Shown piece by piece: positions 66-63,850 of a DNA stretch of 64,000 bases. The notes below the pieces were generated by a model. The model was given only the letters and a program-made list of their open reading frames with translations. It was not told where the DNA came from and did not search any database. Every line of letters begins with the position of its first letter. Positions within the stretch are counted from its first letter, which is position 1. The translations under genes were made by a program, and so were the position numbers. The stretch is from Parcubacteria group bacterium Gr01-1014_30 (GTDB lineage Bacteria; Patescibacteriota; Minisyncoccia; Minisyncoccales; 2-12-FULL-40-12), in contig VMFS01000001.1 in assembly GCA_007376185.1 (NCBI GenBank), positions 94,206-158,205 on the forward strand, given 5' to 3'.

Positions 66-404
66 ATGGCAAAATATATCCCCAACTTTATTGAGGAAAA
101 TGAGAAACGGGTTTCCAGAGGCATTAAAATGCACGCGATAAACCCAGCCTCTAAAGAAGTAATAGAGTTTAGTAAAGCCCACCCATTGCCAAAGGGGGAT
201 GAAATAAGGGTAATCCCAAAAGAGAAGTTTAATTTTCCGGCTAATATTGCGACGCGGGGTAGTAAAGTATCAATTATTTCCATGAAAGGCGACTTCGGCC
301 TCGTTATTGAAAATAAAGAGATCACTGAGAGTTTTAGTAATATTTTTGATTTAGCGTGGGAAATGGCTAAGATGTATGACAAAAAATTAAGAGGTAGTAT
401 TTAA
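66..404 (+). CDS. hypothetical 112-aa protein with no Cys; first gene of the 66-8570 operon
   Basis: Intact ORF ending 10 bp before the MIO-enzyme gene. No recognisable motif. Confidence 0.4.
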   Translation: MAKYIPNFIEENEKRVSRGIKMHAINPASKEVIEFSKAHPLPKGDEIRVIPKEKFNFPANIATRGSKVSIISMKGDFGLVIENKEITESFSNIFDLAWEMAKMYDKKLRGSI

Positions 405-414
405 ACATACAAAA

Positions 415-2094
415 ATGCCAGGTAGCCAAAACGGAGATCAATCACAGGATGGGTTGTTGCGTGCAAAATCAATTGCACAGGATACGTTCAATCTTCAAGA
501 GCAGCAGCGTTTGATGAAGCCAAAAGTTACTCTAGACGGCGACCATCTCGGGGTTCGCGATGTTGACTTATTTGTGCATAACCCCAGCATTGTTATCGAG
601 CTATCAGAAGCAAAGCTTCAAGAAGTTGACAAAAGCAGAAAATTCCTTGAGCGAGAACTTAATAACAGGATTATTTATGGGGTGAACACTGGATTTGGAC
701 CCATGGCTTCGCATATTATTAACCAAGACCAGTTAGAACGGCTGCAAGAAAATCTTGTCCGGAGCCATGCTGTTGGTATGGGGGCGCCTATTGATACAAA
801 ATATGTGCTGGCAGCAATGATTATCCGTTTAAATACTCTTACGAAAAGGTATTCTGGGGTAAGCCGAGGGCTTATAGAGCATCTGCAAAAAGTTCTTAAT
901 CACAGGATAGTGCCAGTGATACCAGAACACGGTGCAGTAGGAACCAGCGGAGATTTGGTTCAACTTGCTCATATTGCTTTAAGCTTGACCGGGCAAGGTT
1001 ACGTGTTTTACCAAGAGGGAAAACAACCTACTTCCAAAGTATTCCAAAGACTTCAGGTACAACCATACAAACTTAAAGCAAAAGAAGGCCTTTCACTTAT
1101 TAACGGCACATCGGCAATGTGCGGAGCGGGCACATTAAACTGTCTTCATGCTCATAGGTTGCTATCTTTGGCAATTCGTTTCGGGGCTTTTGCCTTGGAA
1201 CTTGTTCACGCATACGGCGATAGTATTTCTGAAAAACTTCAAAAGGTAAGGCCGCACCGAGGACAGGTTGCAGTTGCAAAAGCTATACGAGAAACGCTTG
1301 CTTCTTCTAGTATGCTGCACAGCAGGAAAGCTGAAGAACAGGTTGATATTCCAGACGAGGTAAAAGAAATCTCTGAAGTTGTGCAAGAAATTTACTCGTT
1401 CCGCTGTATTCCGCAAATTTTGGGTCCGGTGTACGACGCTTTGTATAAGGCACAAAAAGACATTGAGGTTGAAATTAATTCAAGCTCTGACAACCCAATC
1501 GTTGACCTCGAAGGAGATAACTTCTTACACGGAGGAAATTTCCACGGTGATTACATTGCCTTTGCCATGGACCAACTTAAATTAGCCATTATTAAACTTA
1601 CTATGTTGTCAGAGCGTAGAATAAACTTCTTTTTACACCAAAAACTCAACAACTTTTTCCCGCCATTTTTAAATCTCGGGCAGCCCGGGCTTACGCTTGG
1701 CCTCCAAGGACTGCAATTTGTGGCTACCTCTACCACTTCTCAAAGTCAAACCTTGGCTTTTCCACAATACATACATTCCATCCCAACCAATGCAGATAAT
1801 CAAGACGTAGTAAGCACGGGCATGGAGTCTGCTTTACTTGCGTCAAAAATTATGGAAAACGCCTATATTGTATTGGCCATAGAACTAATTACCCTTGCAC
1901 AAGCTACCGACTTTCGTGGGGTTTACGACAAGCTTTCTAATTCTTCCAAAGATCTATTCAAAGGAGTACGTTCCGTGTTTCCCAAGATAGTTGAAGACCG
2001 CATAATGGTGGACGAACTCCCTAGGGTAGTTGAATTCTTAAAATCCAATCAAACCATTAACCCCTATATAGCTTCAACGAATCATGACTGCTAA
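415..2094 (+). CDS. MIO-dependent aromatic amino-acid ammonia-lyase/aminomutase (HAL/PAL/TAL family)
   Basis: Family motifs GVNTGFGPMA and LVRSHAVGMG are present. The cofactor triad position reads AVGTSGDLVQLAH, i.e. Thr-Ser-Gly where Ala-Ser-Gly is usual. Length 559 aa is typical. Confidence 0.75.
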   Translation: MPGSQNGDQSQDGLLRAKSIAQDTFNLQEQQRLMKPKVTLDGDHLGVRDVDLFVHNPSIVIELSEAKLQEVDKSRKFLERELNNRIIYGVNTGFGPMASHIINQDQLERLQENLVRSHAVGMGAPIDTKYVLAAMIIRLNTLTKRYSGVSRGLIEHLQKVLNHRIVPVIPEHGAVGTSGDLVQLAHIALSLTGQGYVFYQEGKQPTSKVFQRLQVQPYKLKAKEGLSLINGTSAMCGAGTLNCLHAHRLLSLAIRFGAFALELVHAYGDSISEKLQKVRPHRGQVAVAKAIRETLASSSMLHSRKAEEQVDIPDEVKEISEVVQEIYSFRCIPQILGPVYDALYKAQKDIEVEINSSSDNPIVDLEGDNFLHGGNFHGDYIAFAMDQLKLAIIKLTMLSERRINFFLHQKLNNFFPPFLNLGQPGLTLGLQGLQFVATSTTSQSQTLAFPQYIHSIPTNADNQDVVSTGMESALLASKIMENAYIVLAIELITLAQATDFRGVYDKLSNSSKDLFKGVRSVFPKIVEDRIMVDELPRVVEFLKSNQTINPYIASTNHDC

Positions 2095-3598
2095 GTCCAT
2101 TGTTGCTGACTTTGATTTTACCAAACAACGAGATTGGACAACCAGCTTTCTTCATTTCGGCATTACCCAATTCGAAAAACTTCTTACAGATAAACCAGAA
2201 TCGTTTTGGCAGAAAGAAGGAGAGAAACGCGCCTTGAAACTCTTCCATGCAGTCTCCCAAAGAGTTCCTGCTTACAAGACATTCCTTAAAAAGCACAAAA
2301 TAAACCCAAAGAATATACGGACCCTCAAAGATTTTGCCCAGGTCCCTCCTACTGACAAGAAAACCTATATTCGCAAATACCCTTTAATACAGCGTTGCTG
2401 GGATGGGAAACTAGAGACTACAAAATTAGTTGCTATAAGCTCTGGCACTAGCGGGGAGCCAACGTTTTGGCCGCGTAGTAGTTTTCAAGAGTTCGAAGCA
2501 GCGATCATTCACGAACTCTTATATCGCTATCTTTTTGATATTCACAAATACCGCACCCTTCTTATCGTTGGTTTTCCTATGGGCACTTATGTTTCTGGTA
2601 TTGCTACCCTTTTGCCCAGTTGGCTTGTTGCTCAAAAGGGTTATAATCTTACAGTTGCAAGCGTGGGAACGAATAAGCAAGATATTCTAAAAGTGGCCAT
2701 GCTTCTCCAGAAGAATTATGAACAGATTATCTTAGTAGGGCACCCTTTCTTTATGAAAGATGTAGTGGAAACCGGAAGAGAAATTGGGCTTCAGTGGGGA
2801 AAGAAGCGGCTTAAATTTATGTTTTGCTCGGAAGGATTTAGCGAAGAGTGGCGGAGTTATGTATTGAAACAAGTTAAAGCCTCCGTACAGCCTGCCGATA
2901 TGATAAGCACATATGGTTCTTCTGAGTTGTTGCTTATAGCGTGGGAAACCCCAGCAAGTATTGCTTTGAAAGCAGCTATTGAAACAAGTAAAGGAGTAAA
3001 AGGAGAGCTTTTGCACCGTTGGTCTCCTTCGAATCTATTCCAATACAACCCTTTGTTTCGATATATTGAATCTGTTAAAGATGAATTGCTGTTTACTTCG
3101 GCAAGCGGTATCCCGTTAATTCGCTACAATCTCCACGATATGGGCAGAGTTATTTCTCTTGACCAGGCAAAACGAGTGACGTCCAAACTTAAAGTACGCT
3201 GGCAGTTTCCATTTCTTGCGTTAGGAGGCCGGAGTGATTATGCAGTGGTATTTTACGCTGCCAACATTTACCCGGAGCACATTCGTCAAGCCCTTGACTA
3301 TAAACCTTTTTTAACAAAACTCACGGGGAAATTTGTGATGCGTAAAGACTATACCAAAAAGCTGGAGGAGTTTTTGGAAATTAACGTTGAGCTGAAAAAC
3401 CGTGCTAGCCTTGACAAACCCTTTGAACGAGCAATTCAAAAGCGGGTAATCGACCACTTGCAGTCAGTGAACATGGAATATCTTTTCTTGCGCAATAACC
3501 TCAAGCAAGATCTCCGTCCGCGTATAAAGCTTTGGCCATACCAACACGAGAGGTATTTCAAATTAAGCCTTAAGCCTCGTTATATACTGTCTAATTAA
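2084..3598 (+). CDS. adenylate-forming ligase, PaaK / coenzyme F390 synthetase / GH3-like
   Basis: ISSGTSGEPTFWPRS matches the phosphate-binding loop of the PaaK/GH3 clade. 504 aa. Start overlaps the stop of the upstream gene. Confidence 0.55.
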   Translation: MTAKSIVADFDFTKQRDWTTSFLHFGITQFEKLLTDKPESFWQKEGEKRALKLFHAVSQRVPAYKTFLKKHKINPKNIRTLKDFAQVPPTDKKTYIRKYPLIQRCWDGKLETTKLVAISSGTSGEPTFWPRSSFQEFEAAIIHELLYRYLFDIHKYRTLLIVGFPMGTYVSGIATLLPSWLVAQKGYNLTVASVGTNKQDILKVAMLLQKNYEQIILVGHPFFMKDVVETGREIGLQWGKKRLKFMFCSEGFSEEWRSYVLKQVKASVQPADMISTYGSSELLLIAWETPASIALKAAIETSKGVKGELLHRWSPSNLFQYNPLFRYIESVKDELLFTSASGIPLIRYNLHDMGRVISLDQAKRVTSKLKVRWQFPFLALGGRSDYAVVFYAANIYPEHIRQALDYKPFLTKLTGKFVMRKDYTKKLEEFLEINVELKNRASLDKPFERAIQKRVIDHLQSVNMEYLFLRNNLKQDLRPRIKLWPYQHERYFKLSLKPRYILSN

Positions 3599-3600
3599 TT

Positions 3601-4755
3601 ATGCAACAAGCAAGACCACAAATTTTCCGTACCCAAAAAGATCAAGCAAAAATACTAGCTCTTAAGAGGAGAAGTAGTACTAATATTGTTGACGCACTTG
3701 AGCAGCAACTAAGGGAATTGTTTTTGGCTCGGCACCCAAAATTGAAACTAAGCCCAGAAAAAGCAAAACAAGAAACTGCAAAGTTTTTGAAATCGAAAAA
3801 GAAAAAACCATTAGAAAAACAAGGTAGTTGGGTATACTTTAAATGGAATAGAACACTTGTTCATATCTTGGATGAAGATGATTTCTTTGAACTGCGTACG
3901 GCAAGAAACAAAAATCTTATTACAAAAGGCGAGCAAGAAAAACTTCGCACTTTTCGCATTGGCATAGCCGGTTTGAGCGTAGGCAACAGCGCCGCCCTAG
4001 TTCTTGCGCTGGAAGGCGCAGAAACTATGCGGTTGGCAGATTTTGACGAACTTTCGCTTTCAAATCTCAATCGCATTCGAGGAAGTATTACCCAACTTGG
4101 TTTAAATAAAACAATAATGACCGCAAGGCAGGTGTATGAACTGAATCCTTATGCAAAACTAGAACTCTTTGAAAAAGGATTACATCAGGCAAGAGATCTG
4201 AAAAAGTTTGTCGCAGACCCGCCTAAGCTAGATGTATTAGTGGACGAAATAGATGATGTTATAATGAAAGTGCAGCTTCGACTAAAAGCAAGAAAACTAC
4301 GCATTCCTGTATTATCGGTTGCGGATAACGGCACCAACTCTATTGCTGACGTTGAGCGTTTTGACTTAGAGCCAAAACGTAAACTTTATCACGGACTTCT
4401 ACAGGACAGTAAAGCAAGCAAACTGCAGAGAGATATCTTGTCGAAAGAAAAAATGAGAATGATTGCAGATATAGTAGGAGTAGAGTATGTTACTTCACGA
4501 ATGAAGACATCATTCCTTGAGGTGGGCAACACGCTATACTCTTGGCCCCAGCTCGGAGGAGCCTCTATGTTAAGCGGTGCTACTCTTGCATATCTTGTGA
4601 AAAAAATCGCGTTTGGGGAAAACCTCGAAAGCGGGAAATACGATGTGAACTTCGACCGAATTTTCGAAAACCAGTACGACTCCTTAACGGCAAAACAACG
4701 TAGAAATAGAGAGAATAAAGAATTTCTCCACAAACAAAAGGAACTATTTTCTTAA
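3601..4755 (+). CDS. ThiF/MoeB/E1-like adenylyltransferase with a ~110-aa N-terminal extension
   Basis: RIGIAGLSVGNSAALVLALEG...LADFDELSLSNLNRI is the canonical ThiF Rossmann/SNLNRQ motif. The N-terminal extension could be a peptide-clamp/RRE-like domain (inference). Confidence 0.7.
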   Translation: MQQARPQIFRTQKDQAKILALKRRSSTNIVDALEQQLRELFLARHPKLKLSPEKAKQETAKFLKSKKKKPLEKQGSWVYFKWNRTLVHILDEDDFFELRTARNKNLITKGEQEKLRTFRIGIAGLSVGNSAALVLALEGAETMRLADFDELSLSNLNRIRGSITQLGLNKTIMTARQVYELNPYAKLELFEKGLHQARDLKKFVADPPKLDVLVDEIDDVIMKVQLRLKARKLRIPVLSVADNGTNSIADVERFDLEPKRKLYHGLLQDSKASKLQRDILSKEKMRMIADIVGVEYVTSRMKTSFLEVGNTLYSWPQLGGASMLSGATLAYLVKKIAFGENLESGKYDVNFDRIFENQYDSLTAKQRRNRENKEFLHKQKELFS

Positions 4756-4756
4756 T

Positions 4757-5812
4757 ATGGAAGACAAGATAAGACAAATACTCGAGCTTGCGATACGTGC
4801 TCCTTCTGGAGAAAACTGCCAGCCATGGAAGTTCCAGATTCAGGGAAATCAACTCACCATTTGGAATATGCCAGAACGCGATAGTTCTCTTTACAGTTGG
4901 GGGCAGCGACCATCGTATGTTGCACACGGTGCGTTTTTAGAAAGCGTTGCTATTGCAGCTCCCGCGTTTGGACTTTCTCCCCGTATAGAGCTTTTCCCTG
5001 ATTCTACAAAAACAGAGTGCGTGGCGCGAATCGTATTTGAAGAATCGCAGCAAAAAATTCATCCCTTGTATCAATTTATTACGGAGCGAGTGACAAACAG
5101 AAAGGTTTATAAAAAAATTGTCCTTACCAAAGAGCAAAAGGAAGAACTTTCTAGTATACACATAGGACTAGAGCGTGGCAAAATTATATTTGTAGAACAA
5201 GAACAAGACATAAAAACCATAGCTCAAGCTATAGCGGGAAACGAACGTATTATCTTTGAAAACCCGTACATGCATAAATTTTTCTATGACCATATCACGT
5301 GGACAGAACAAGAGGATCTCGGAAAAAAAATTGGGTTTTATGTTAAAACATTCGAATTGCCTATGCCAGCAGAAAAAATATTCAAACTTGCGAAGAGTAA
5401 AACTTTTGTCAAATTCGCTAACAAGATTGGCTTTTCGAAAATGATTGCAAAACAAAATGCAAAAGTCTATAGTTCGGCTTCTGCAGTAGGAGCAATTATA
5501 ATGTATAGTAACTCGTCAGTAGATTTTATTGTCGCAGGACGACTCATACAGCGAATCTGGCTTACTGTAACGAAGTTAGGTTTGAGCCTTCAACCTCTTA
5601 CAGGCATCCTATTCCTTTATCAACGCGTTTCTCAACAGCAAACAGACAAACTAAGTCCGGGACAAATAGACTTTATACAAGAACAGTACAAGCGAATTAA
5701 GGAAACTTTTGGGGTTGATAATGAAACTATTGCAATGCTTTTTCGGATCGGAGATGGGGGGAGCCCTACTGCGCGCTCTCTACGACTTCCACTTACGGTT
5801 CAAGAATTTTGA
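4757..5812 (+). CDS. nitroreductase-fold oxidoreductase (SagB/McbC-like or Acg-like, 351 aa)
   Basis: N-terminal LELAIRAPSGENCQPWKF is the nitroreductase-superfamily signature. The size suggests an extended or two-lobed member. Confidence 0.6.
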   Translation: MEDKIRQILELAIRAPSGENCQPWKFQIQGNQLTIWNMPERDSSLYSWGQRPSYVAHGAFLESVAIAAPAFGLSPRIELFPDSTKTECVARIVFEESQQKIHPLYQFITERVTNRKVYKKIVLTKEQKEELSSIHIGLERGKIIFVEQEQDIKTIAQAIAGNERIIFENPYMHKFFYDHITWTEQEDLGKKIGFYVKTFELPMPAEKIFKLAKSKTFVKFANKIGFSKMIAKQNAKVYSSASAVGAIIMYSNSSVDFIVAGRLIQRIWLTVTKLGLSLQPLTGILFLYQRVSQQQTDKLSPGQIDFIQEQYKRIKETFGVDNETIAMLFRIGDGGSPTARSLRLPLTVQEF

Positions 5813-5818
5813 GTACAT

Positions 5819-6538
5819 ATGTTTTTCTCCAACCGAATCCCCGAACCTAAAATAATGGAGAAAGAAGAAATGAAAGTGTTCGAAGAGTTGAGTAATCAGA
5901 ACTACAAAAGGTGGATACTTCCTTTTGTAGATGAAGCAATGCAAACACTGAATGTTGAATCAGGGAAAGTTCTTGACATAGGATGCGGGCCAGGATTACT
6001 TGTTAAGGAACTCGCTAAGCGATCAAAAAACCTCCGAGTCATTGGAGTTGACGTCTCACCCGAAGCCATCAAGCTTGCCAAGAAGAATTGTCGTTCTCTA
6101 AAAAACGTAAAATTTCTTCGCGGCGATGTTACAAGTTTGCCGTTTCCCAATGGCACCTTCGACCTTATTGTTTGCAAAGATAGCTTCCATGAATTCCCAA
6201 ATTTAAGAAAAGCTCTTCAAGAAGTGATGCGTGTTTTGAAACCCGGCGGGATTCTTTACGCGCAAGATTTACGAAGGGATCTCCCGATGTACTTGCTTCG
6301 TCGCGCAATACCCCCTGACACAACTGTAAAAAAACTTCAGTTCTACTCGGCAAGGGCTGCATACATAAAAACCGAGATTCGAGATATATTAAAACAATTA
6401 GATATTCAACACTTCTTTATTAAAACAAGAAAACTTACTGAAAACATTAGAAAAAATTATGGAAAGCAAGGCATCTCTTTAATTCAGCTAAAAGAAGGTT
6501 TTCAGGCTAGGTATATACTTGTAGTAAAAAATAAATGA
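5819..6538 (+). CDS. class I SAM-dependent methyltransferase
   Basis: Motif I VLDIGCGPGLL. A post-I acidic stretch and LKPGGIL are also present. Confidence 0.75.
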   Translation: MFFSNRIPEPKIMEKEEMKVFEELSNQNYKRWILPFVDEAMQTLNVESGKVLDIGCGPGLLVKELAKRSKNLRVIGVDVSPEAIKLAKKNCRSLKNVKFLRGDVTSLPFPNGTFDLIVCKDSFHEFPNLRKALQEVMRVLKPGGILYAQDLRRDLPMYLLRRAIPPDTTVKKLQFYSARAAYIKTEIRDILKQLDIQHFFIKTRKLTENIRKNYGKQGISLIQLKEGFQARYILVVKNK

Positions 6539-8193
6539 ACTTGCCTTTACAAATTTTTGCCCTGGAAAACTTAGATCTTTTAATCCTTGGTATAGCAAAC
6601 ACCGCTATAACCCTTTTAGGTGTGGTGGTATTTCTCCGCAATACACGCAGTATTACTTACAAAACTTTTTTACTCTTCGCATTGGTAGCCTCTGTCTATG
6701 CGACCGTGAATTACATGAGCTACCAATCTAGTTCTTCTATTCTAGTACTTTGGGCACTCCGTTTCGTTCTTTTCTCTGCTACCTGGTACTCTTTTCTACT
6801 GTTGCAGCTTTTTTATGTCTTCCCAAAAGAACGTATTACATTTCCAAAATTGTACAGATTCTTCCTACTTCCAACGGTCACACTTACCTCTTTATTAACC
6901 CTAACTCCATTTGTATTCTCGCGGATATCAGAACTAGCGCCGGTAGGTCAAGTTACTAATCCTGAAAGAGGCATGGGCATTGTGCTATTTGCAATCATAA
7001 GCATCTTTCTAGTAGCCTACGGACTTTTTACTCTATTTAAAAAGACTTTTAGGGCAAAAGGTGAAGAAAGAGATCAGCTTCTTTTTGTACTGATTGGTTC
7101 TCTTATTACCTATGTCTTCATTATTGTATTCAACCTTATACTACCCGTGTTTTTTAACAATACCGTACTCATTCCCTTAGCCCCGGTCTTTACCCTTCCT
7201 TTTATTTCCTTCACTGCATATGCAATCCTTCGATACAAGCTTCTGAATATCAAGGTAATAGCTACGGAAGTTCTTACGTTTATGTTGGCGGCGGTTACAC
7301 TTTTTGAGGTGCTGTTTGCGCGAGAGCTCGGAGTGCTTATTTTCAGAATTGCTATTTTTGTCGCGGTGCTTGGATTTGGTATTTTGCTTATTCGGAGTGT
7401 AAGAAAGGAGGTGGAGCAGAGAGAGAAACTGGAGAGGTTAAGCGAGCAGCTGAAAACAGCCAACGTCAGGTTAGACGCGGCTTTAAAGAAAGTTGAGAAA
7501 CTATCAAAAGCAAAGTCCGAGTTTATTTCCATTGCTTCCCATCAACTAAGAACCCCTTTGACCGCCATAAAGGGATATATCTCAATGATTTTGGAAGGGA
7601 CTTACGGGCGTTTGTCAAAGAAAGCAAGAAGACCTATGGGAAACGTTTATGAGTCAAACGAGCGATTGATTCGTTTGATCAACGACCTGCTAGAGGTTTC
7701 CAGGATTGAAGCTGGCAAAATAGAGCTTGAGCTAGAAGAAGCCCGCGTTGAAGAAATTATTGAGGGCGTAGTTGCGGAATTGGGAATCACGGCTCAGCAG
7801 AAAAAGCTTTATCTGAAATGGGAAAAGCCGGAAACGCCTGCCCCGAAATTATTGCTGGATAAGCAAAAGATAAGGCAGGTTATCTTGAATTTGGTGAACA
7901 ATGCCGTAAAATATACTAAGGAAGGAGGCATCACCATTAAATTGAAAATTGAAAACTTAAAATTGAAAATTGCGATAGCTGATACTGGCGAGGGTATGAC
8001 TAAAGAGGATTTGGGGAAGGTATTTCAAAGCTTTTCCAGAGGGACAACAGGCGTCCGACTTTCAGCCGAAGGAGCAGGCCTTGGTCTGTATATAGCCAAA
8101 AAGTTTGTTGAAATGCACAGGGGCAGAATATGGGCAGAATCAGAAGGAAAAGGTAAGGGGTCAACTTTTTACGTTGAGTTGCCCATAAAGTAG
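6535..8193 (+). CDS. sensor histidine kinase with multi-TM N-terminal domain
   Basis: About seven hydrophobic helices, a coiled coil, then the HisKA motif SHQLRTPLTAIKGY. The HATPase_c region contains GEGMT and GAGLGLYI. Start overlaps the methyltransferase stop. Confidence 0.8.
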   Translation: MNLPLQIFALENLDLLILGIANTAITLLGVVVFLRNTRSITYKTFLLFALVASVYATVNYMSYQSSSSILVLWALRFVLFSATWYSFLLLQLFYVFPKERITFPKLYRFFLLPTVTLTSLLTLTPFVFSRISELAPVGQVTNPERGMGIVLFAIISIFLVAYGLFTLFKKTFRAKGEERDQLLFVLIGSLITYVFIIVFNLILPVFFNNTVLIPLAPVFTLPFISFTAYAILRYKLLNIKVIATEVLTFMLAAVTLFEVLFARELGVLIFRIAIFVAVLGFGILLIRSVRKEVEQREKLERLSEQLKTANVRLDAALKKVEKLSKAKSEFISIASHQLRTPLTAIKGYISMILEGTYGRLSKKARRPMGNVYESNERLIRLINDLLEVSRIEAGKIELELEEARVEEIIEGVVAELGITAQQKKLYLKWEKPETPAPKLLLDKQKIRQVILNLVNNAVKYTKEGGITIKLKIENLKLKIAIADTGEGMTKEDLGKVFQSFSRGTTGVRLSAEGAGLGLYIAKKFVEMHRGRIWAESEGKGKGSTFYVELPIK

Positions 8194-8207
8194 TTGTAGA
8201 ATTAAGT

Positions 8208-8570
8208 ATGGCTAAGATTTTGATAGTAGAAGACGAAAAGCTTTTGGGGGAAATGTACAAAGATAAGCTTGAGGCCTTGGGCCATGAAGTTGTTTTGGTG
8301 CTTTCGTCTGAAGACGCACTTGATTACGTGAACAAAGAGACCCCCGATTTTATTTTATTGGACATAATTTTGCCCAAAGCGAGCGGCATAGATTTTTTAA
8401 GAGCTGCAATGAGAATCAAAAGTATTGCTAAAGTCCCGGTGGTTGTTTTTTCAAACTACGACGACCCCGCAACAAAAAAAGAGGCCTTGAAGCTTGGCGT
8501 CAAGGCCTATTTAATAAAATCGCAGTACACGCCTCAAGGAATGTTGGAAGAGGTTGAAAAGTTTCTTTAA
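8208..8570 (+). CDS. stand-alone response-regulator receiver domain (CheY-like)
   Basis: KILIVEDEK...LLDIILP...K fits the receiver fold. 120 aa with no output domain. Confidence 0.8.
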   Translation: MAKILIVEDEKLLGEMYKDKLEALGHEVVLVLSSEDALDYVNKETPDFILLDIILPKASGIDFLRAAMRIKSIAKVPVVVFSNYDDPATKKEALKLGVKAYLIKSQYTPQGMLEEVEKFL

Positions 8571-45764: not shown

Positions 45765-46130
45765 ATGAAAAGCATTTTGTTAGTAGAAGACGATCCATTT
45801 TTGATAGACATCTACAGCACCAAGCTGAAAGAGGCCGGTTTTTCAGTTGACGTGGCTCCCTCTGGCAAGGAGTGTTTGCAAAAACTCAAGCAAGAACTTC
45901 CCGACCTCTTGCTTTTAGACATAGTTTTGCCCGAAGTTGACGGCTGGGAAATTATAAGAAAAATCAAGGAAGACGCCAAACTCAAGGACTTAAAAGTCGT
46001 TGTTCTGTCAAATCTCGGGCAAAAGGACGAAGTTGAGAAAGGACTGGCCTTTGGCGCCGTAAAATACCTTATCAAAGCCCACTACACGCCGTCTGAAGTA
46101 GTTAACGCGATAAAAGAGATAACTGTATGA
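45765..46130 (+). CDS. stand-alone receiver domain protein within the pil operon
   Basis: ILLVEDD...LLDIVLPEVDGWEI...K receiver fold. Paralogous to 8208-8570 and 59222-59608. Confidence 0.75.
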   Translation: MKSILLVEDDPFLIDIYSTKLKEAGFSVDVAPSGKECLQKLKQELPDLLLLDIVLPEVDGWEIIRKIKEDAKLKDLKVVVLSNLGQKDEVEKGLAFGAVKYLIKAHYTPSEVVNAIKEITV

Positions 46131-47194
46131 ATTACCAAGACCAGATAAAAAAGTTATTAGAACACGCCGTTAAAGAGCAGGCTTCAGACCTTCACTTGTC
46201 TGTCGGTCACCCGCCTACTTTGAGGATAGCCGGCCGACTTTTCCCTTTGGCGAAAGTAATGAAAGAGTTGTCTCCAGCTGACACTCAAGGGCTTGCTTTT
46301 GCTTTATTGCAAGAGGAGCAAAAGCAAAGGTTGTTGTCGGTGAAAGAACTGGACTTTTCCTACGAGCTTCAAGAGAAATCAAGGTTCAGGGTAAATATCT
46401 TTTTGCAAAGAGGAAACTTTGCGGCCGCTTTAAGACAAGTGCCAAGCCGCATTCCGACGATTGAAGAGCTGAATCTGCCGCCGCTTTTGCATAAATTCAC
46501 CACGCCGAAACAGGGTTTTATCCTCATTACGGGACCTTCAAGCCAAGGTAAGTCAACCACCTTGGCCGCCCTGCTTGACGAGATAAATCACACGAGAACC
46601 GACCACATCATCACCATTGAAGACCCTATTGAGTATATTTTTGAGGCTGACCGCTGCATCATTGACCAAAGAGAGGTTTACCAAGACACGCTTTCTTTTG
46701 ATAGGGCCCTGAGGTCAACCTTCCGTCAAGACCCCGACGTCATTATGGTGGGTGAAATGCGCGACGCTGAAACCATGGCCATTGCTTTGCAGGCCGCAGA
46801 AACAGGGCATTTGGTTTTTTCCACTCTGCACACCAACTCGGCCCCTCAAAGCATACACAGAATTGTGGGGGCGTTTCCTCCAGAATATCAGATCCAGATT
46901 AGGGCTCAGTTGTCAGGGGCTCTTTTAGGCGTAGTTTCTCAGCGGCTGGTTCCCAGAATAAAGGGCGGTCTTATCCCGGCTTGCGAGGTAATGATTACCA
47001 CCCCGGCTGTCGCCAACCTTATCCGCGAAAATAAAATTCACGAACTGCCCTTAGTTATAGAGACGTCGGCTGAAGCGGGAATGACGTCTTTAAACAAGTA
47101 CTTGGCGAACTTGATAAGGACTAAAGAAGTAGCTTTGGAAAACGCCCTGAGTTATTCTCTGGACCCGGTAGAACTAAGGACTTTGGCAAGATGA
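46127..47194 (+). CDS. pilT: twitching-motility/retraction ATPase PilT
   Basis: Walker A ILITGPSSQGKSTT. 355 aa with no zinc motif. Confidence 0.8.
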   Translation: MNYQDQIKKLLEHAVKEQASDLHLSVGHPPTLRIAGRLFPLAKVMKELSPADTQGLAFALLQEEQKQRLLSVKELDFSYELQEKSRFRVNIFLQRGNFAAALRQVPSRIPTIEELNLPPLLHKFTTPKQGFILITGPSSQGKSTTLAALLDEINHTRTDHIITIEDPIEYIFEADRCIIDQREVYQDTLSFDRALRSTFRQDPDVIMVGEMRDAETMAIALQAAETGHLVFSTLHTNSAPQSIHRIVGAFPPEYQIQIRAQLSGALLGVVSQRLVPRIKGGLIPACEVMITTPAVANLIRENKIHELPLVIETSAEAGMTSLNKYLANLIRTKEVALENALSYSLDPVELRTLAR

Positions 47195-47280
47195 TTACGA
47201 AATTACGAATTTTCTACGAAAGTACGAAAATTCTTAATTTTTTTTCGTATTTTCGTATTTTTTTCGTAATTTCGTAAGGC
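47195..47280. repeat. imperfect 86-bp palindrome made of 'tacgaaa' heptads; same sequence as the inverted repeats flanking the GxxExxY gene at 61.6 kb
   Basis: Left arm TTACGAAATTACGAA..TACGAAAGTACGAAAA; right arm is its reverse complement. Fills the pilT-pilC intergenic space exactly. Confidence 0.7.
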
Positions 47281-52183: not shown

Positions 52184-55328
<3,145 letters not shown>

Positions 55329-55329
<1 letters not shown>

Positions 55330-55360
55330 CCCCCACACCAAATTTTGGTGTGGGGGTTAA
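55329..55360. terminator. bidirectional hairpin terminator between the rodA/ftsW-family gene and atpC
   Basis: AACCCCCACACC-aaaatt-GGTGTGGGGGTT, a perfect 12-bp stem flanked by A/T. Confidence 0.65.
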
Positions 55361-55620
55361 AGCCCTAAAAAGATATTAACTCTGTTTTCGCTTGTCTCCA
55401 AGAGTCCTCTTTCAAATTGGTAAGTGAGTTTTTTTTTATCAGAGATGTGAATTGTTAAATTATCAAAAATAAGGGTAATGAAATTGGTGTGCTCTGGCAG
55501 AACATCAAATTTTCCCAATCTATTTTGGGAAGAAACAGCTTGGGCCGTTCCTCGAAATTGTTCTTTTTCAATAATTGCCGAAAATAACACTTTTACATCA
55601 AGCGCGGTAGTTTTTTCCAT
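55357..55620 (-). CDS. atpC: F-type ATP synthase epsilon subunit, beta-sandwich domain only
   Basis: GKFDVLPEHTNFITLI matches the epsilon consensus. Only 87 aa. Confidence 0.7.
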   Translation of the reverse strand: MEKTTALDVKVLFSAIIEKEQFRGTAQAVSSQNRLGKFDVLPEHTNFITLIFDNLTIHISDKKKLTYQFERGLLETSENRVNIFLGL

Positions 55621-55623
55621 GGT

Positions 55624-57818
<2,195 letters not shown>

Positions 57819-57821
57819 AGG

Positions 57822-59210
57822 TTATCCTGACCCCTTAATTGGTAGTTCAATCCAGAAAGTTGTTCCTTTACCCCAGCCTTCAGATTCGGCCCAGGTTCTG
57901 CCTCCGTGGGCTTTGACAAATTCAAAGACAATACTTAAACCAATTCCCCGTCCCGGGCCGTAAAGTTTTTTTGCCGCCGCTGACCTTTCAAAGAGTTTCC
58001 CCCGCAAAAAATAATCTATTTCTTCTTTTTCCATTCCAATACCCGTGTCAGTAACCCCAATTTTTAACCACCGCCCTTTTCCAGAAGGGCGGGGCCCAGC
58101 CCATTTAGAAATGGGCTGTGGTTCTTCATTTTCCACTTTTAATTTAACAGTCACGCCTCCCCGATTCGTGTATTTAACGGCATTATTAACCAAATTCCAA
58201 ATTGCCTCTTTTATCATGCTTTTGTTCAACATTAAGGTTGGGAGTTTTTCGCCAGTACCGGCAGCTAGCTCATACTTTAAATAGATATTTTTTTGCTCTG
58301 CTTCAAGTTTCAATTCTTCAATTACGTTTTTAATGAGAGCTTCAATTTGGCAATCTTCTAAATCCAAAGATTTTTTCCCCACCCTCAGTTCCTGGATGTA
58401 TAATAAGTTTTCCATTAAAGAATAGAGATTATCAACTAATTTTTTTATTTCAATAAGTTTCTCCTTGATAACCGGATTTTCCTCTCTGCCGTAAGTTCCT
58501 TCTAAAATTCTTTCCAAATATCCTTTAATTGGGCCAATTGGAGTTCTTAGGTGATGCTGGAGAGATAACAAGAGTTGGTCTTTTGCCGATGCCAATTTTC
58601 CCCATTCTTCAGCCAAACTTTCGGCTTCCTTTCTCTTAGCTTTCTCTTTGGTTAAAGAATGACCAAAAATAAAGGACACTAAAAATAAAAAAGCAAGTAC
58701 GGGACCCAGCCACAAATATTCACTTTGCCCGGTTATTATTGGTAAGAAGACGTACAAAACCGTAATGGCAACAACTAACAACGCAAAACTAACCAAAGTA
58801 TAAAGAGCCCGCGAGTGGCTTAGCAAGGAACTTTTAAGTGATTTTTCAAATAAAATTGCCGTTCCCAACCCGGCATAGATAAAAAGCAGCATAAAAAAGA
58901 TTGCTTCTTGAGGATGCATCCTCGTTAAAAAGTTTTTTTCATCTTCAATAATGAAAATGCCCACAATGAGAGCTAGACCCAAAATGGAGGAGGCAATTAA
59001 CGGGACTTTAATTTTTGGAGAGACACTATTGGAAATAGCGACAATGAAATAAAAAAGCTCCAAGATAACAATAATTGTTAGCGAAGCAGTTATTTTCATC
59101 CATTCTGGACCTGCCAGCAAGAGGGGGTTTGAGTAAAAATATAAAGAGCCCGACCATGAGATGATAATAATAGCGAAGATGAGAAAATGGAGATTGCTAA
59201 TAAAGTTCAT
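57822..59210 (-). CDS. multi-TM sensor histidine kinase inserted in the atp operon
   Basis: HisKA HHLRTPIGPIKGY. ILEGTYGR is shared with the kinase at 6535-8193. HATPase_c GIGMEKEE...GRGIGL. Confidence 0.8.
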   Translation of the reverse strand: MNFISNLHFLIFAIIIISWSGSLYFYSNPLLLAGPEWMKITASLTIIVILELFYFIVAISNSVSPKIKVPLIASSILGLALIVGIFIIEDEKNFLTRMHPQEAIFFMLLFIYAGLGTAILFEKSLKSSLLSHSRALYTLVSFALLVVAITVLYVFLPIITGQSEYLWLGPVLAFLFLVSFIFGHSLTKEKAKRKEAESLAEEWGKLASAKDQLLLSLQHHLRTPIGPIKGYLERILEGTYGREENPVIKEKLIEIKKLVDNLYSLMENLLYIQELRVGKKSLDLEDCQIEALIKNVIEELKLEAEQKNIYLKYELAAGTGEKLPTLMLNKSMIKEAIWNLVNNAVKYTNRGGVTVKLKVENEEPQPISKWAGPRPSGKGRWLKIGVTDTGIGMEKEEIDYFLRGKLFERSAAAKKLYGPGRGIGLSIVFEFVKAHGGRTWAESEGWGKGTTFWIELPIKGSG

Positions 59211-59221
59211 TTAGACAGAGT

Positions 59222-59608
59222 TTATTTTAGCCCTTCTCGCATTATTTCGGTTAGTTCCTTTAGTGAGTATTGAGCTTTAACCAAGATTTTGTCAATTCCT
59301 TCTTTGTTAAGCTCTTCGTTTGATTCAGCGCTACTGTAGTTGGTTAAGGCATAAATTTTAAGAGTTTTCGTTTCAGGGTATTTTCTGACTTCTTTTAAAA
59401 TCTCAATGCCGTTGATATCTGGCAGAATTAAATCCAATAAAATTAAATCTGGTTTCTCTTTTTTACCCTCTCTGATTTCTTGCACCATTGCAATTGCCTT
59501 CTTTCCCAAGTCCAAAATTTCAATTTCAAATCCGGCCATTGGAAAGGTCTCTTTAAAAAGTTTAATGGTTGGAACATCGTCTTCGATTATGAGAATTTTC
59601 GGTTTCAT
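59222..59608 (-). CDS. stand-alone receiver domain protein
   Basis: ILIIEDD...LLDLILPDINGIEI...K receiver fold. Confidence 0.8.
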   Translation of the reverse strand: MKPKILIIEDDVPTIKLFKETFPMAGFEIEILDLGKKAIAMVQEIREGKKEKPDLILLDLILPDINGIEILKEVRKYPETKTLKIYALTNYSSAESNEELNKEGIDKILVKAQYSLKELTEIMREGLK

Positions 59609-59665
59609 AGAGATAGAAAATTTTCATCAAGATAAGCTTGAACAAAATGAAAGCTTATCGCTATT

Positions 59666-59705
59666 AAAATTTTTGGCTTTGGCATAAAATTTTTGGCTTT
59701 GGCAT
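59666..59705. repeat. perfect tandem 20-bp direct repeat AAAATTTTTGGCTTTGGCAT x2 upstream of the receiver/kinase genes (minus strand)
   Basis: Read directly from the sequence. Candidate regulator-binding site. Confidence 0.5.
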
Positions 59706-59712
59706 TTAGAAT

Positions 59713-61200
59713 CTAGAAGGGGCGGTATAAAATTTCTTTGACTGTTGGAGTAATCTCTTTGATAAAATCTTTAAGTTCGTCTAAATTTTTTATTTTTTCT
59801 ACCTCTGCTTCTATTTGCATAAAAACCTCTTTATAGCTTTTCAAAATTGTATCAATCTCTACTTTCATTATATTTTCGGGTTTATCATCCCAAAAACCAG
59901 AAATCAGCAGTCCAAAAAGAAACAATTGCAGGGCTCTGGGAATTGTTGCTTTCGGCCCTTGGTTAAAAAGAATCTCCACTTTCCTGCCCAGCTCTAAAAT
60001 TTTTTGAGTCTCCAGAGATAATTCTCCGCCAAACTGAGCGATTTCCGTTACTCTTTGATATTCAACCATTTTTTTTCTTATCCAACCGGCTAAAGCCTTG
60101 TCTAATGGCTCTTTGGTTTGATTGCCCACACGAGAAACCGAAAGGAAAGCGTTGATGGCCGGCAGTTTTCCTTTTCTGAAGTCATTAATATCAAAAAAAA
60201 TGTGGCCGTCGGTCATTGCCATCAGATTTGTTTGGATGAATCCAGAGATGTCGTTTTCCAGGGTTTCGGCAACTGGCAGTGCGGTAATGCTTACCCCTTC
60301 CTGCCCATCCAAATTTTTAGTGGGGGATTTGATATTTCCTGCTCTTTCCAGTAAGGCAGCTTGGATGTGAAAGATATCTCCGGGATAGGCGCTTCTCCCG
60401 GGCAGCCTTTTTATTAATAGAGAGATTTCCCGGTAAAATTTTGCATGACTGGTTAGGTCGTCGAGAATAATTAATACATTTTCTCCCTTGTCGCGGAAGT
60501 ATTCGGCAATTGCCATTCCAGAAAAGGGGGCAAGGTAGTTTATGGTTGACGGTTTTTCCGAGGTGGCAACGACCATCACTGTTTTGTCAAAAACGCCCAT
60601 TTCTTTTAGATAATCCTCCACGGCTTTTATTGCCGAAATTTCTTTTCCAATTCCGACATAAACGGAAACTACCCCCCTTTTTGCCTGATTGGAGATGGTT
60701 TGCAAAAGAAGAGTGGTTTTGCCTGTTTTGGCGTCTCCAATAACCATCTCTCTTTGGCCATAACCAATGGGCACCAATAAATCCACCACCATTACGCCGG
60801 TCTCCAGAGGTTTTCCCACCCTTACCCTTTGAGTAATACCGGCAGCCTCTATTTTTATCGGCAAATATTTTTTCTCTCCCAATATTGGTCCCAACCCGTC
60901 TATCGATTCACCGAGAGGGTTGATTATTCTGCCCAAGAGCTTCTGGGAAGCCGGAATTCTAAAAGGATTTTTAGTCCTGGATACCCCTGTCCCGACTTTT
61001 AATTTTGTAACATCAAACATTAAAATTTCGGCTACCTCTCTGTCCAAACCATGTACCACGCCTCTTTCCTCGTTTTCGGTAATGACCATTTCTCCCAATC
61101 TTAAGGAGGGGAGGCCTGAGATGTGAGCTAAATAATGGTTCAATCCTACGACCCGACCTATTTCTGCTGTTTTTTCTAAATGTTCTCTAAAATTCGCCAT
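59713..61200 (-). CDS. atpA: F-type ATP synthase alpha subunit
   Basis: P-loop GDAKTGKT. 495 aa. Confidence 0.9.
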   Translation of the reverse strand: MANFREHLEKTAEIGRVVGLNHYLAHISGLPSLRLGEMVITENEERGVVHGLDREVAEILMFDVTKLKVGTGVSRTKNPFRIPASQKLLGRIINPLGESIDGLGPILGEKKYLPIKIEAAGITQRVRVGKPLETGVMVVDLLVPIGYGQREMVIGDAKTGKTTLLLQTISNQAKRGVVSVYVGIGKEISAIKAVEDYLKEMGVFDKTVMVVATSEKPSTINYLAPFSGMAIAEYFRDKGENVLIILDDLTSHAKFYREISLLIKRLPGRSAYPGDIFHIQAALLERAGNIKSPTKNLDGQEGVSITALPVAETLENDISGFIQTNLMAMTDGHIFFDINDFRKGKLPAINAFLSVSRVGNQTKEPLDKALAGWIRKKMVEYQRVTEIAQFGGELSLETQKILELGRKVEILFNQGPKATIPRALQLFLFGLLISGFWDDKPENIMKVEIDTILKSYKEVFMQIEAEVEKIKNLDELKDFIKEITPTVKEILYRPF

Positions 61201-61543
61201 GATTTGAAAGAAAGAACTTGTCTATTTCTCCTGCCAATGAGAAATCGCGCCAATTCCCCTGGTATTCTATTATGGCGCCAGCAACAATTTTCGGATTTAT
61301 GGTAAGATTTAAAATAACTTTCTGACCCGATTCTTTCTCAAGCCATTCACTAATTTTATTAAGAAAATTGTCTTTAGGAGAAAACGCAATTTCCAACTTA
61401 ATCTCAGGCAGAGACTTGAGCTTTTTTTCCAGCTTGAGGTCGACCTCATTTTTTAATTTTTTTTGAGCAATTTCATCTAAAACCAATATTAAATCTTCTC
61501 TCGTCCTTATTTTTTTTACAAAATCTCCAGAGACCTTTTTCAT
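61187..61543 (-). CDS. atpH: F-type ATP synthase delta (OSCP) subunit, C-terminal domain only (118 aa)
   Basis: LNLTINPKIVAGAIIEYQGNWRDFSLAGEI matches the delta C-terminal consensus. Confidence 0.6.
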   Translation of the reverse strand: MKKVSGDFVKKIRTREDLILVLDEIAQKKLKNEVDLKLEKKLKSLPEIKLEIAFSPKDNFLNKISEWLEKESGQKVILNLTINPKIVAGAIIEYQGNWRDFSLAGEIDKFFLSNHGEF

Positions 61544-61550
61544 ACACTCC

Positions 61551-62058
61551 TACGAAATTACGAAAATAATACTAAAGTACGAAACTCACTTATTTTTTAT
61601 ATTAAATTTACTACCCTTTTGAATTTTACGCCCTCTTTTGTAAAATTTACCATTATTCCTAGTTTGGATCCGCTTGCTTTTAGATAAGCATATACTTGCT
61701 CAATATGTCTTCGGGGAAATTTGTTACCCTTTTTAAACTCCAATACCACTTGATTTTCTATAACAAAATCTAAGAAGTAACCTCCAATCCCCTTTCTTTT
61801 ATAAATCAGTGGAGCGGCAACTTGTTCCTTATATCTTAACCCACAATTTTTAAGTTCTACGGCAACAGCTCTTTGATAATATTTTTCCTGGTAATCACTA
61901 CCTAATTGCCTATATATCTCAAAAAGAATGCCAATAATTTGATAACATAACTTAGGATAAATTAAATCATTTCTTTTAAGATAAGGTTTATTTTCCATTT
62001 TTTATAGTGGAAACCTAAATTTTCGTACTTTCGTAAAAAATTTCGTAATTTCGTAACC
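61551..62058. mobile_element. about 510-bp mini-element: GxxExxY gene bounded by 40-bp terminal inverted repeats of 'tacgaaa' heptads
   Basis: Inverted repeats at 61551-61587 and 62017-62058 are reverse complements of each other. They match the palindrome at 47195-47280. Confidence 0.65.
61597..61998 (-). CDS. GxxExxY-family protein (PD-(D/E)XK nuclease-like)
   Basis: IIGILFEIYRQLGSDYQEKYYQRAVAVEL...GYFLDFVIENQVVLEFK...KLGIMVNF follows the GxxExxY family pattern. Confidence 0.7.
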   Translation of the reverse strand: MENKPYLKRNDLIYPKLCYQIIGILFEIYRQLGSDYQEKYYQRAVAVELKNCGLRYKEQVAAPLIYKRKGIGGYFLDFVIENQVVLEFKKGNKFPRRHIEQVYAYLKASGSKLGIMVNFTKEGVKFKRVVNLI

Positions 62059-62696
62059 TTAGAAGATTTCCCTTTTTGCTTTTTCCAGGGCTTCCATTAC
62101 CAATTTCTCGTGGTCAGAAAGGTCAATCGCTTTACCTATTGTTTTTTTAGCCACCTTCGAAAGTATCTGATAAATTTTTTGGTCTATTTCTCCAATCTCC
62201 TTTTTTTTATAATCTTCAATCTCTCCTTGTACTTCTTCAACCTTTTTGTTAATGGCTTCTCTGGTTGATTGCAAGGTCTGAGCCGACGTTTTTAAATACG
62301 CCTCTTGGATTTTAACAAATTTTTCTTCAGCCGCCCGATTTAATCCCAAAATTTTATTTTCCGTCCCTTCTAAAATTATATTTTGCACGTCTTGAGCAGA
62401 TTTTGATAGATTAGCAGCTTCCTTAGTTATGCGTTCTGCGAATTCTCCAAGCACTTTTTGAATCTCCTGATTTCCGTCTGCAAATTTGCTTTTGTAGCTT
62501 TTTATGATTTCTTGGGTAGCTTCCTGGAACGCATCTCTGAACTCCCTGACGTTTTTTTGCAACTCTTTTTCATTTCTTCTTGACGGTCTTCTTGTCAAGA
62601 AGAAGAAGAGTCCAAGTAAAGCCACAGCCTCGGCGGCTCCAAGAAAGAAAATAATGAAGGTTAGAAGGTCTGAACATTCAACTAACAACTCAAACA

Positions 62697-62697
<1 letters not shown>
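62059..62697 (-). CDS. atpF: F-type ATP synthase b subunit (long form)
   Basis: N-terminal TM helix followed by about 170 aa of charged helix. Confidence 0.6.
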
Positions 62698-63476
<779 letters not shown>

Positions 63477-63494: not shown

Positions 63495-63850
63495 ATGCAA
63501 TTCAAGATTAACAAACAATTCGGTTTTTTGCCAGAGCCACACACCAACTTTATTTTTGCCGCGATTGTCGAAGAGTTTGGGTTAGTTGGAGTGGTGGTTT
63601 TGCTTTTTTACTTTTAGCTCTGTTTTGGCGAACGCTGAAAATAGCGCTGGATGCCGCAAACAATTTTCCACGACTCTTCGCGACTGGCTTTGCTATTGTC
63701 TTAATATCCAAAGCATTTATCAATATCGGAATGAATATCGGCATATTTTAGATTGTTGGGTTTCTTTTGCCTCTGGCGAATTAAGGCGTTCATCATTAAC
63801 TGCAACTTTCGTTGCTTTAGGTTTTCTGCAGAGCTTAAGAATCGGATAAG
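63495..63850 (+). pseudogene. degenerate duplicate of the 3' third of the RodA/FtsW-family gene
   Basis: About 85% nucleotide identity to 54998-55329. Translation MQFKINKQFGFLPEPHTNFIFAAIVEEFGLVGVVVLLFYF stops; downstream frames are broken. Confidence 0.65.

Follow-up and report, generated by a model that had tools for sequence, protein, structure and literature searches.

An intact receiver and histidine kinase pair is conserved within the operon of a non-canonical F-like ATPase in a clade of Parcubacteria

Introduction

Why should a two-component signaling pair sit among the genes of an ATPase? The question is raised by a locus of Parcubacteria group bacterium Gr01-1014_30, where a receiver-only response regulator (RR) and a histidine kinase (HK) are encoded between the genes for the alpha (atpA) and gamma (atpG) subunits of an F-type ATPase. 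The locus lies in a 64-kb stretch of DNA that was analyzed as a whole and is called the window here. The known regulators of F-type ATPases are inhibitors, either built into the enzyme or separate small proteins; phosphorelay signaling is not among them. A preliminary description of the window had proposed that the pair couples a membrane signal to the ATP synthase, either through expression of the enzyme or at the protein level. We find that, in one clade of Parcubacteria, the pair is intact, belongs to the conserved gene set of an F-like ATPase operon that is itself non-canonical, and has reading frames that overlap.

Results

The pair lies intact between atpA and atpG

Ten close-packed open reading frames (ORFs) occupy positions 55357-63467 on the minus strand of the window. 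Their order is X256 (named after its length of 256 amino acids, aa), b-like, PD-(D/E)XK, short delta, alpha, RR, HK, gamma, beta and epsilon, and the F1 set of alpha, beta, gamma, delta and epsilon is recognizable with Pfam and NCBIfam. The features are as follows.

62697-63467, minus strand: X256, first gene of the operon, 256 aa (characterized by a profile search of PDB, AlphaFold2 and Foldseek; no Pfam or NCBIfam match)
62059-62697, minus strand: b-like stalk subunit, 212 aa, a single N-terminal transmembrane helix and then a long helix (weak NCBIfam matches to F0F1 subunit B, E = 0.0075)
61597-61998, minus strand: PD-(D/E)XK (GxxExxY) gene, between b and delta (PDDEXK_3, E = 6e-30)
61187-61543, minus strand: short delta/OSCP subunit, 118 aa (Pfam OSCP, residues 43-109 against profile positions 100-167; NCBIfam delta)
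59713-61200, minus strand: F1 alpha, atpA (ATP-synt_ab, E = 8e-66)
59222-59608, minus strand: RR, 128 aa (Response_reg, E = 1.6e-17)
57822-59210, minus strand: HK, 462 aa (HATPase_c, E = 2e-20)
56979-57818, minus strand: F1 gamma, atpG (Pfam/NCBIfam)
55624-56988, minus strand: F1 beta (ATP-synt_ab, E = 7e-60; Walker A motif GGAGVGKT read from the translation)
55357-55620, minus strand: epsilon, 87 aa, beta-sandwich domain only (Pfam ATP-synt_DE_N, residues 18-84)
55326-55360, minus strand: terminator-like hairpin with a 16-bp stem at the operon end (scan for terminator-like sites)

The ORFs, their domains and the flanking coordinates agree with the preliminary description in placing an intact RR and HK between atpA and atpG. 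The spacing is 104 bp from alpha to RR, 11 bp from RR to HK and 3 bp from HK to gamma. In a scan of the window no terminator-like site was found between alpha and RR, the strong hairpin coming only after epsilon, and promoter-like matches were at chance level (22 found, 19.7 expected), with the best one inside the RR gene. The atp genes could in principle have been a pseudo-operon, but all of them are 50-84% identical across dozens of relatives, which speaks against such a reading. The b-like gene holds the same position in all relatives. The PD-(D/E)XK gene stands outside the conserved operon, since it is not found at this place in the other loci examined; in one relative, locus L002, a GIY-YIG gene (2824-3063) occupies the same spot between b and delta. 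The delta match is confined to the C-terminal part of OSCP, the N-terminus being truncated.

The pair stays with the atp genes when it moves

The proteins of the window were run by tblastn against all loci, and the kinases were clustered at 90% identity. The metagenome scan was made with an alignment of the DHp region only; an alignment of the whole kinase gave the generic pattern DTGIGMxK[EK], and from it only locus L007 was useful. HK has many full-length orthologues, with identities of 39-67%. The kinase-centered survey comprised 62 loci, which fell into 41 clusters. RR-HK adjoined atp genes in 35 of the 41 clusters, or in 35 of the 39 informative ones; four were not adjacent, and two, on short contigs, were uninformative. 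The synteny that the preliminary description had left to be checked in related genomes is therefore there, in four arrangements.

Arrangement A, alpha-RR-HK-gamma: 13 clusters
Arrangement B, epsilon-RR-HK: 19 clusters
Arrangement C, RR-HK-X256 on the same strand: 2 clusters
Arrangement D, pair divergent from X256: 1 cluster

The pair lies between alpha and gamma in locus L004, for example, and directly after epsilon in L002 and L006. Most loci have no alpha-RR spacer, and their genes share 4-bp start/stop overlaps in the form eps[-4]RR[-4]HK or alpha[-4]RR[-4]HK[3-17]gamma. A 4-bp start/stop overlap is a signature of translational coupling. In a neighbor-joining tree of the alpha subunit, each arrangement formed one clade, with A nested in B and with C and D as sisters, implying about three relocations in which the pair stayed with atp and the overlapping codons were regained. 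Although rodA and ligA are just as syntenic, it is the atp genes that the pair accompanies in types A, C and D. The receiver is conserved at least as well as the structural subunits; in locus L122, identity to the window is 65% for RR, 58% for alpha, 48% for gamma and 39% for HK.

A receiver without an output domain and a compact membrane kinase

The receiver domain covers residues 5-121 of the 128 aa of RR, and Pfam found no output or other domain beyond Response_reg. The full set of key residues (D10, D11, D59, T89 and K111) is kept in all receiver orthologues, which are 126-136 aa long, and the protein carries a family-specific insert, EIREGKKEKPD. Receivers of YycF and NtrC1, as well as DivK, are among its best matches in solved structures (E about 5e-10).

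The N-terminus of HK contains six hydrophobic segments within residues 1-187, joined by loops of at most 14 aa, and is thus polytopic, as had been described before. The H-box QHHLRTP (residues 218-224, about 58542-58562), with H219 as phospho-acceptor, and the N, G1 and G2 boxes (NLVNNAVKYT, DTGIGM and GPGRGIGL) are invariant in 18 orthologues. HisKA kinases usually have an acidic residue directly after the phospho-His. In HK the place of this residue is taken by a His (HHLRTP, invariant in the family), and the second kinase of the window (6535-8193) reads HQLRTP. The HisKA match of HK (E = 1.4e-5, 25.5 bits) falls slightly under the Pfam cut-off of 26.9, and the absence of the acidic residue probably explains this low score.

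The only invariant positions in the transmembrane region of the 18 orthologues are W19, W37 and P100, and no charged residue is invariant there. The number of transmembrane helices differs among orthologues through the presence or absence of a 53-aa segment. HK of the window is a shortened form compared with the 525-aa orthologue of L002, lacking this two-helix segment and an N-terminal helix. The second window kinase matches PF16927 (HisKA_7TM, E = 4e-12), and the N-terminus of the L002 orthologue aligns to the PF16927 region of that kinase (E = 4e-11). The atp-linked HK itself gave no PF16927 match, either whole or as its N-terminal 200 aa, and is related to HisKA_7TM indirectly, via the L002 orthologue. 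As RR and HK are adjacent in every orthologous locus, they would form a cognate pair joined by phosphotransfer.

The operon encodes a non-canonical ATPase

In X256 a signal/anchor helix is followed by an extracytoplasmic beta-domain and, at the C-terminus, by a hairpin that resembles a c subunit. When a profile of 21 orthologues was compared with PDB, the top five matches were all F-type c subunits (E = 0.008-0.03), with alignments that span the RNP loop (the counterpart of RQP) through helix 2. The AlphaFold2 model (pLDDT 79) consists of an N-terminal helix, a confident beta-domain at residues 36-158 and a helical hairpin. In Foldseek the hairpin matched c-rings with TM-scores of 0.71-0.85 and 1.5 Å rmsd over 67 residues, and the beta-domain matched phage capsid decoration proteins. 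The position of the ion-binding Glu of c-rings is S240 in X256 of the window and I, V, L, A or F in 146 diverse representatives; in these representatives the RNP loop is invariant, and no Asp or Glu occurs at positions 238-243. The "c" of the gene order given earlier thus holds for the hairpin but not for the protein as a whole, a 256-aa fusion that no Pfam family matches.

The family is widespread in the candidate phyla radiation (CPR), where Parcubacteria, Amesbacteria and Woesebacteria are among the groups that have it; in a library clustered at 50%, 373 representatives matched at E<=1e-30. Its members, which include 1401-2162 of L002 and 10001-10741 of L174, are mostly annotated as hypothetical, and some IMG records label them COG0636, subunit c.

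Neither an a subunit (PF00119) nor a canonical c subunit (PF00137) turned up, whether in the operon, elsewhere in the 64 kb of the window or in the 8-10 kb flanks of the relatives examined. Six small or polytopic ORFs elsewhere in the window were considered as candidate a or c subunits and set aside, as none had a Pfam match. Epsilon is 83-93 aa long in all relatives and lacks the C-terminal helical domain; delta measures 116-122 aa in type A loci, against 151-169 aa in the other types. The assumption of a canonical ATP synthase therefore fails, since the operon has neither an a subunit nor a c subunit that bears the carboxylate. In the literature we found no description of a c-like fusion without the carboxylate; in papers on CPR bacteria the F-type ATPase figures as an ordinary enzyme coupled to protons.

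Sampling by X256 reveals a sister clade

X256 served as an unbiased marker for sampling from the ATPase side. Of seven contexts looked up, two were of type A (L167 and L170) and five were of a further type, E (L168, L169, L171, L172 and L173). In type E, a soluble PAS kinase and a receiver-only protein lie directly after epsilon on the opposite strand, in convergent orientation, and form the end of a ligA-rodA-TPR-HK-RR operon. Five such pairs were located.

L168, 15888-17359: type E pair
L169, 15970-17523: type E pair
L171, 13851-15288: type E pair
L172, 9827-11220: type E pair
L173, 10979-12397: type E pair

We considered whether the type E pair is a strand-switched orthologue of the window pair. 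This was ruled out by the low identity of the kinases (26-29%), by their different sensor and by membership in the ligA-rodA-TPR operon. The receivers are 33-36% identical, and the type E receiver is closer (46-47%) to another receiver of the window (45765-46130), associated with pilB and pilT.

The spacer before the receiver gene

Two features mark the 104-bp spacer between alpha and RR.

59666-59705, minus strand: perfect tandem repeat of 2 x 20 bp, ATGCCAAAGCCAAAAATTTT, each copy starting with ATG (repeat search)
59605-59685, minus strand: small ORF of 26 codons, MPKPKILIAISFHFVQAYLDENFLSL, which starts in the second repeat copy and whose stop overlaps the receiver ATG (ATGA)

The 20-mer occurs twice in the window, both times in this tandem, against 0.07 copies expected by chance. 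It is the best-scoring tandem repeat in the window, and an independent Logan assembly (L001) contains it too. The first copy opens an ORF of 13 codons, and the repeat is a doubling of the start of the small ORF. The N-terminus encoded by the small ORF resembles that of the receiver itself (MKPKILII), and homologous small ORFs lie 5' of the receiver gene in L103 (8684-8797) and L107 (3098-3190); that of L103 overlaps the epsilon stop with its start and the receiver ATG with its stop. Because these N-termini copy the receiver's, the spacer looks like a decayed duplicate of the 5' end of the receiver gene, perhaps kept as a coupling leader. The repeat pointed out in the preliminary description is thus perfect and real but is not a conserved regulatory site. 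A role as operator was ruled out, as the genes of most orthologous loci overlap and leave no spacer. The predicted RNA fold of the spacer was not significant (z = -1.29), and a riboswitch or attenuator was dropped for that reason. L001 and L107 have a 9-bp hairpin in common, with differing stems and a similar 11-nt loop, two sequences being too few for covariation.

A second tandem repeat of 2 x 20 bp, AAATTTTCGTAMTTTCGTAA, lies at 62017-62056 in the spacer between b and the PD-(D/E)XK gene. Related direct and inverted repeats, TACGAAA/TTTCGTA, were seen in the pilT-pilC spacer (47194-47277), and AATTTCG is repeated 4.9 times in tandem inside ligA (52706-52739). These three may belong to a short dispersed repeat family.

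Other two-component genes and neighboring genes

The window holds three receiver-only proteins of 120, 121 and 128 aa, mutually 31-33% identical, with genes at 8208, 45765 and 59222. As had been noted before, none has an output domain. No further HK or RR was found in the 64 kb. The cores of HK and the second window kinase are 39% identical (E = 2e-58), and both contain ILEGTYGR (residues 235-242 of HK). This motif had been taken for an unusual shared signature; it is indeed in both kinases, but the HK orthologues carry IL[ED]GTYG[RK]EENP, and it is a family trait of these CPR kinases. The proposed paralogy of the two kinase/receiver pairs likewise stands at the family level, given the similar cores and N-termini that both appear to be of the HisKA_7TM type. 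A recent duplication was ruled out by the reversed gene order and by receivers that share only about 30% identity. The third receiver gene (45765-46130) is an orphan between pilB and pilT.

The second kinase/receiver pair ends a plus-strand cluster at 66-8570. By eye, we take this cluster to encode a HAL/PAL-type ammonia-lyase or aminomutase-like protein (415-2094, motif GTSGDL) as well as adenylating-ligase-like, ThiF/E1-like, nitroreductase-like and methyltransferase-like proteins.

Just upstream of the ATPase operon, at 63586-63849 on the plus strand, is the 3' end of a second FtsW/RodA-like gene, the other rodA being at 54241-55329 (plus strand), so that the operon has a rodA paralogue on each side. 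RodA-like tblastn fragments lie at the same place in L001. In at least seven relatives, a protein of 226-269 aa that is not in the window is encoded directly upstream of X256 on the same strand, at the following positions.

L002, 517-1242
L006, 1101-1808
L167, 9320-10000
L168, 9175-9945
L169, 9136-9945
L170, 5246-5959
L172, 3196-3978

It has weak matches to IS1595 transposases (zinc ribbon or DDE domain) in L006, L167, L168 and L169; the L002 protein has no recorded IS1595 match and by eye aligns closely to that of L167. Small nuclease-type "selfish" genes were seen in or beside the operon, namely PDDEXK_3 in the window, GIY-YIG in L002 and a 23S_rRNA_IVP-family gene near the L171 operon (4137-4508).

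Discussion

The embedding of the pair is intact, conserved and strongly tied to the atp genes, and functional coupling is therefore favored. We see about an even chance that RR-HK is a clade-specific signaling module coupled to this ATPase, with the receiver acting on the ATPase itself. Between the two options of the preliminary description, action at the protein level is the more plausible, since the receiver has no output domain. The proposed coupling of a signal to the ATPase gains from these results, though we infer the target of the receiver from linkage.

The mechanism we propose is as follows. RR-HK would be fixed as an accessory module of the CPR-type F-like ATPase operon in a Parcubacteria clade related to Nealsonbacteria, and would be transcribed and translated together with the ATPase subunits. 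HK, with its compact six-helix sensor, apparently derived from HisKA_7TM and without an extracytoplasmic domain, may read a signal in or at the membrane; candidates are membrane energization, lipid state or the state of the membrane sector of the ATPase. It would autophosphorylate at H219 and pass the phosphate to D59 of the receiver. A receiver without an output domain must act by binding another protein, and the most parsimonious target would be the surrounding ATPase, on which RR could serve as a switchable brake or activator. Because epsilon lacks the inhibitory C-terminal domain, the receiver would supply control that is otherwise missing.

Several observations weigh against control of the ATPase by the pair. 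The type E sister clade has the same operon type without the window's RR-HK pair, and in Amesbacteria, where a distant relative of X256 is the first gene, the same operon of seven genes has no two-component system. These data suggest that the ATPase works without the pair, and the Amesbacteria operon indicates that RR-HK was added, in one clade, to an operon type that is widespread in CPR bacteria. The H-box HHLRTP has no acidic residue, and the balance of kinase and phosphatase activity of HK is thus hardly predictable from its sequence. Loci L099-L101 carry a true orthologous pair (RR 78% and HK 56% identical) flanked by uvrB and rpsT, and the 8 kb around it contain no atp gene; in the other three non-adjacent clusters the N-terminus differs and RR and HK are separated by a methyltransferase gene. 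The clade is highly syntenic in general, with rodA and ligA also always nearby, which makes synteny alone weak evidence.

The main rival of ATPase control is that RR-HK is a general-purpose pair acting elsewhere, on type IV pilus ATPases or envelope growth or as a phosphate sink, and that its place in the atp operon reflects the tight packing and local rearrangement of streamlined CPR genomes and gives it constitutive expression. The equal conservation of rodA, ligA and TPR genes, which have no obvious link to atp, fits this explanation, as do the L099-L101 pair away from atp, the PDDEXK_3 and GIY-YIG genes, which indicate that the operon tolerates passengers, and the orphan receiver between pilB and pilT. 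Yet a passenger would hardly be found in four positions and still be adjacent to atp in 35 of 39 informative clusters, nor would it be expected to go with atp rather than rodA on moving (types A, C and D) and to have its 4-bp overlaps with atp genes re-created after every move. We therefore regard this explanation as possible but doubtful.

The ATPase-control reading has a bolder form, which we hold to be unlikely: an ATP-driven rotary device that no longer moves ions and is switched on and off by a CheY-like receiver, phosphorylated by a membrane-embedded kinase. It is suggested by a c-like ring without the carboxylate together with the lack of an a subunit, and the outer face of the ring would bear a crown of beta-domains like phage decoration proteins. 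If true, the operon would encode a mechanical ATPase under signal control that acts on the cell surface of an episymbiotic bacterium and is switched much as the flagellar motor is by CheY.

Transcriptional control is the commonest role of two-component systems, and RR might regulate the atp operon or other genes through a DNA-binding partner or a phosphorelay. The spacer with its repeat and hairpin before the window receiver gene could be taken that way. But RR has no DNA-binding or other output domain, all three receivers of the window are receiver-only, most orthologous loci lack the spacer and hence a conserved operator, and neither the promoter-like matches nor the fold of the spacer rose above chance; we think transcriptional control quite improbable. 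Least credible to us is structural recruitment, with the membrane domain of the kinase, the receiver or both serving as subunits of the membrane sector, stator-like in place of a, and with signaling secondary: the operon and window lack an a subunit, and the kinase, a polytopic protein, is coupled stoichiometrically to the subunits by its place in the operon, but Amesbacteria and type E operons are equally a-less without this kinase, its transmembrane region has no invariant charged residue, and the helix number varies among orthologues.

As a stand-alone receiver with a full D-D-D-T-K set and no output domain, RR resembles CheY, DivK, CpdR and PilH, and like CheY with FliM it is encoded beside a rotary machine. 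It differs from CheY in having no chemotaxis genes nearby, in its insert and in its partner, a membrane kinase of HisKA type and not CheA. HK shares short loops and an intramembrane sensor type with the HisKA_7TM kinases, such as the second window kinase, but has six helices rather than at least seven, the H-box HHLRTP and no PF16927 match. In its proposed role, RR would be a small protein that switches an ATPase, as are the C-terminal domain of epsilon, zeta of alphaproteobacteria, IF1 and AtpTheta of cyanobacteria; to our knowledge none of these is a phospho-receiver or is driven by a kinase, and no relationship to RR in sequence is to be expected. We know of no receiver that regulates an F-type ATPase, and literature searches found none, nor did they find a two-component pair described in a CPR atp operon.

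N-ATPases have the gene order atpDCQRBEFAG, with atpQ and atpR, and an Na+-type c subunit. The window operon, with the order c-like, b, delta, alpha, (RR, HK), gamma, beta, epsilon, is not one of them. The nearest precedent for a re-purposed F1 is the F1-like X0 ATPase of Mycoplasma (Types 2 and 3), which likewise combines F1-like alpha, beta, gamma and epsilon with a non-canonical membrane sector in a genome-reduced, host-dependent bacterium. It is reported to be encoded by seven-gene clusters that are extra copies beside a genuine F1Fo operon, with three accessory proteins without known relatives, two of which have 3 and 12 predicted transmembrane helices (PMC3369863). The window operon falls outside this class, because it keeps b-like, delta and c-like subunits and adds a two-component pair. 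Like the Mycoplasma enzyme, the ATPase of the window presumably serves a purpose other than the usual synthesis of ATP coupled to protons.

A clade-wide RR-HK pair within the operon would provide a first candidate case of a rotary ATPase controlled directly by a kinase and receiver. The CPR "F-type ATPase", which is routinely scored as present and proton-coupled, appears, at least in these lineages, to be without its ion-binding and ion-conducting parts, and genome-based inference of the energy metabolism of ultra-small symbionts has to change accordingly.

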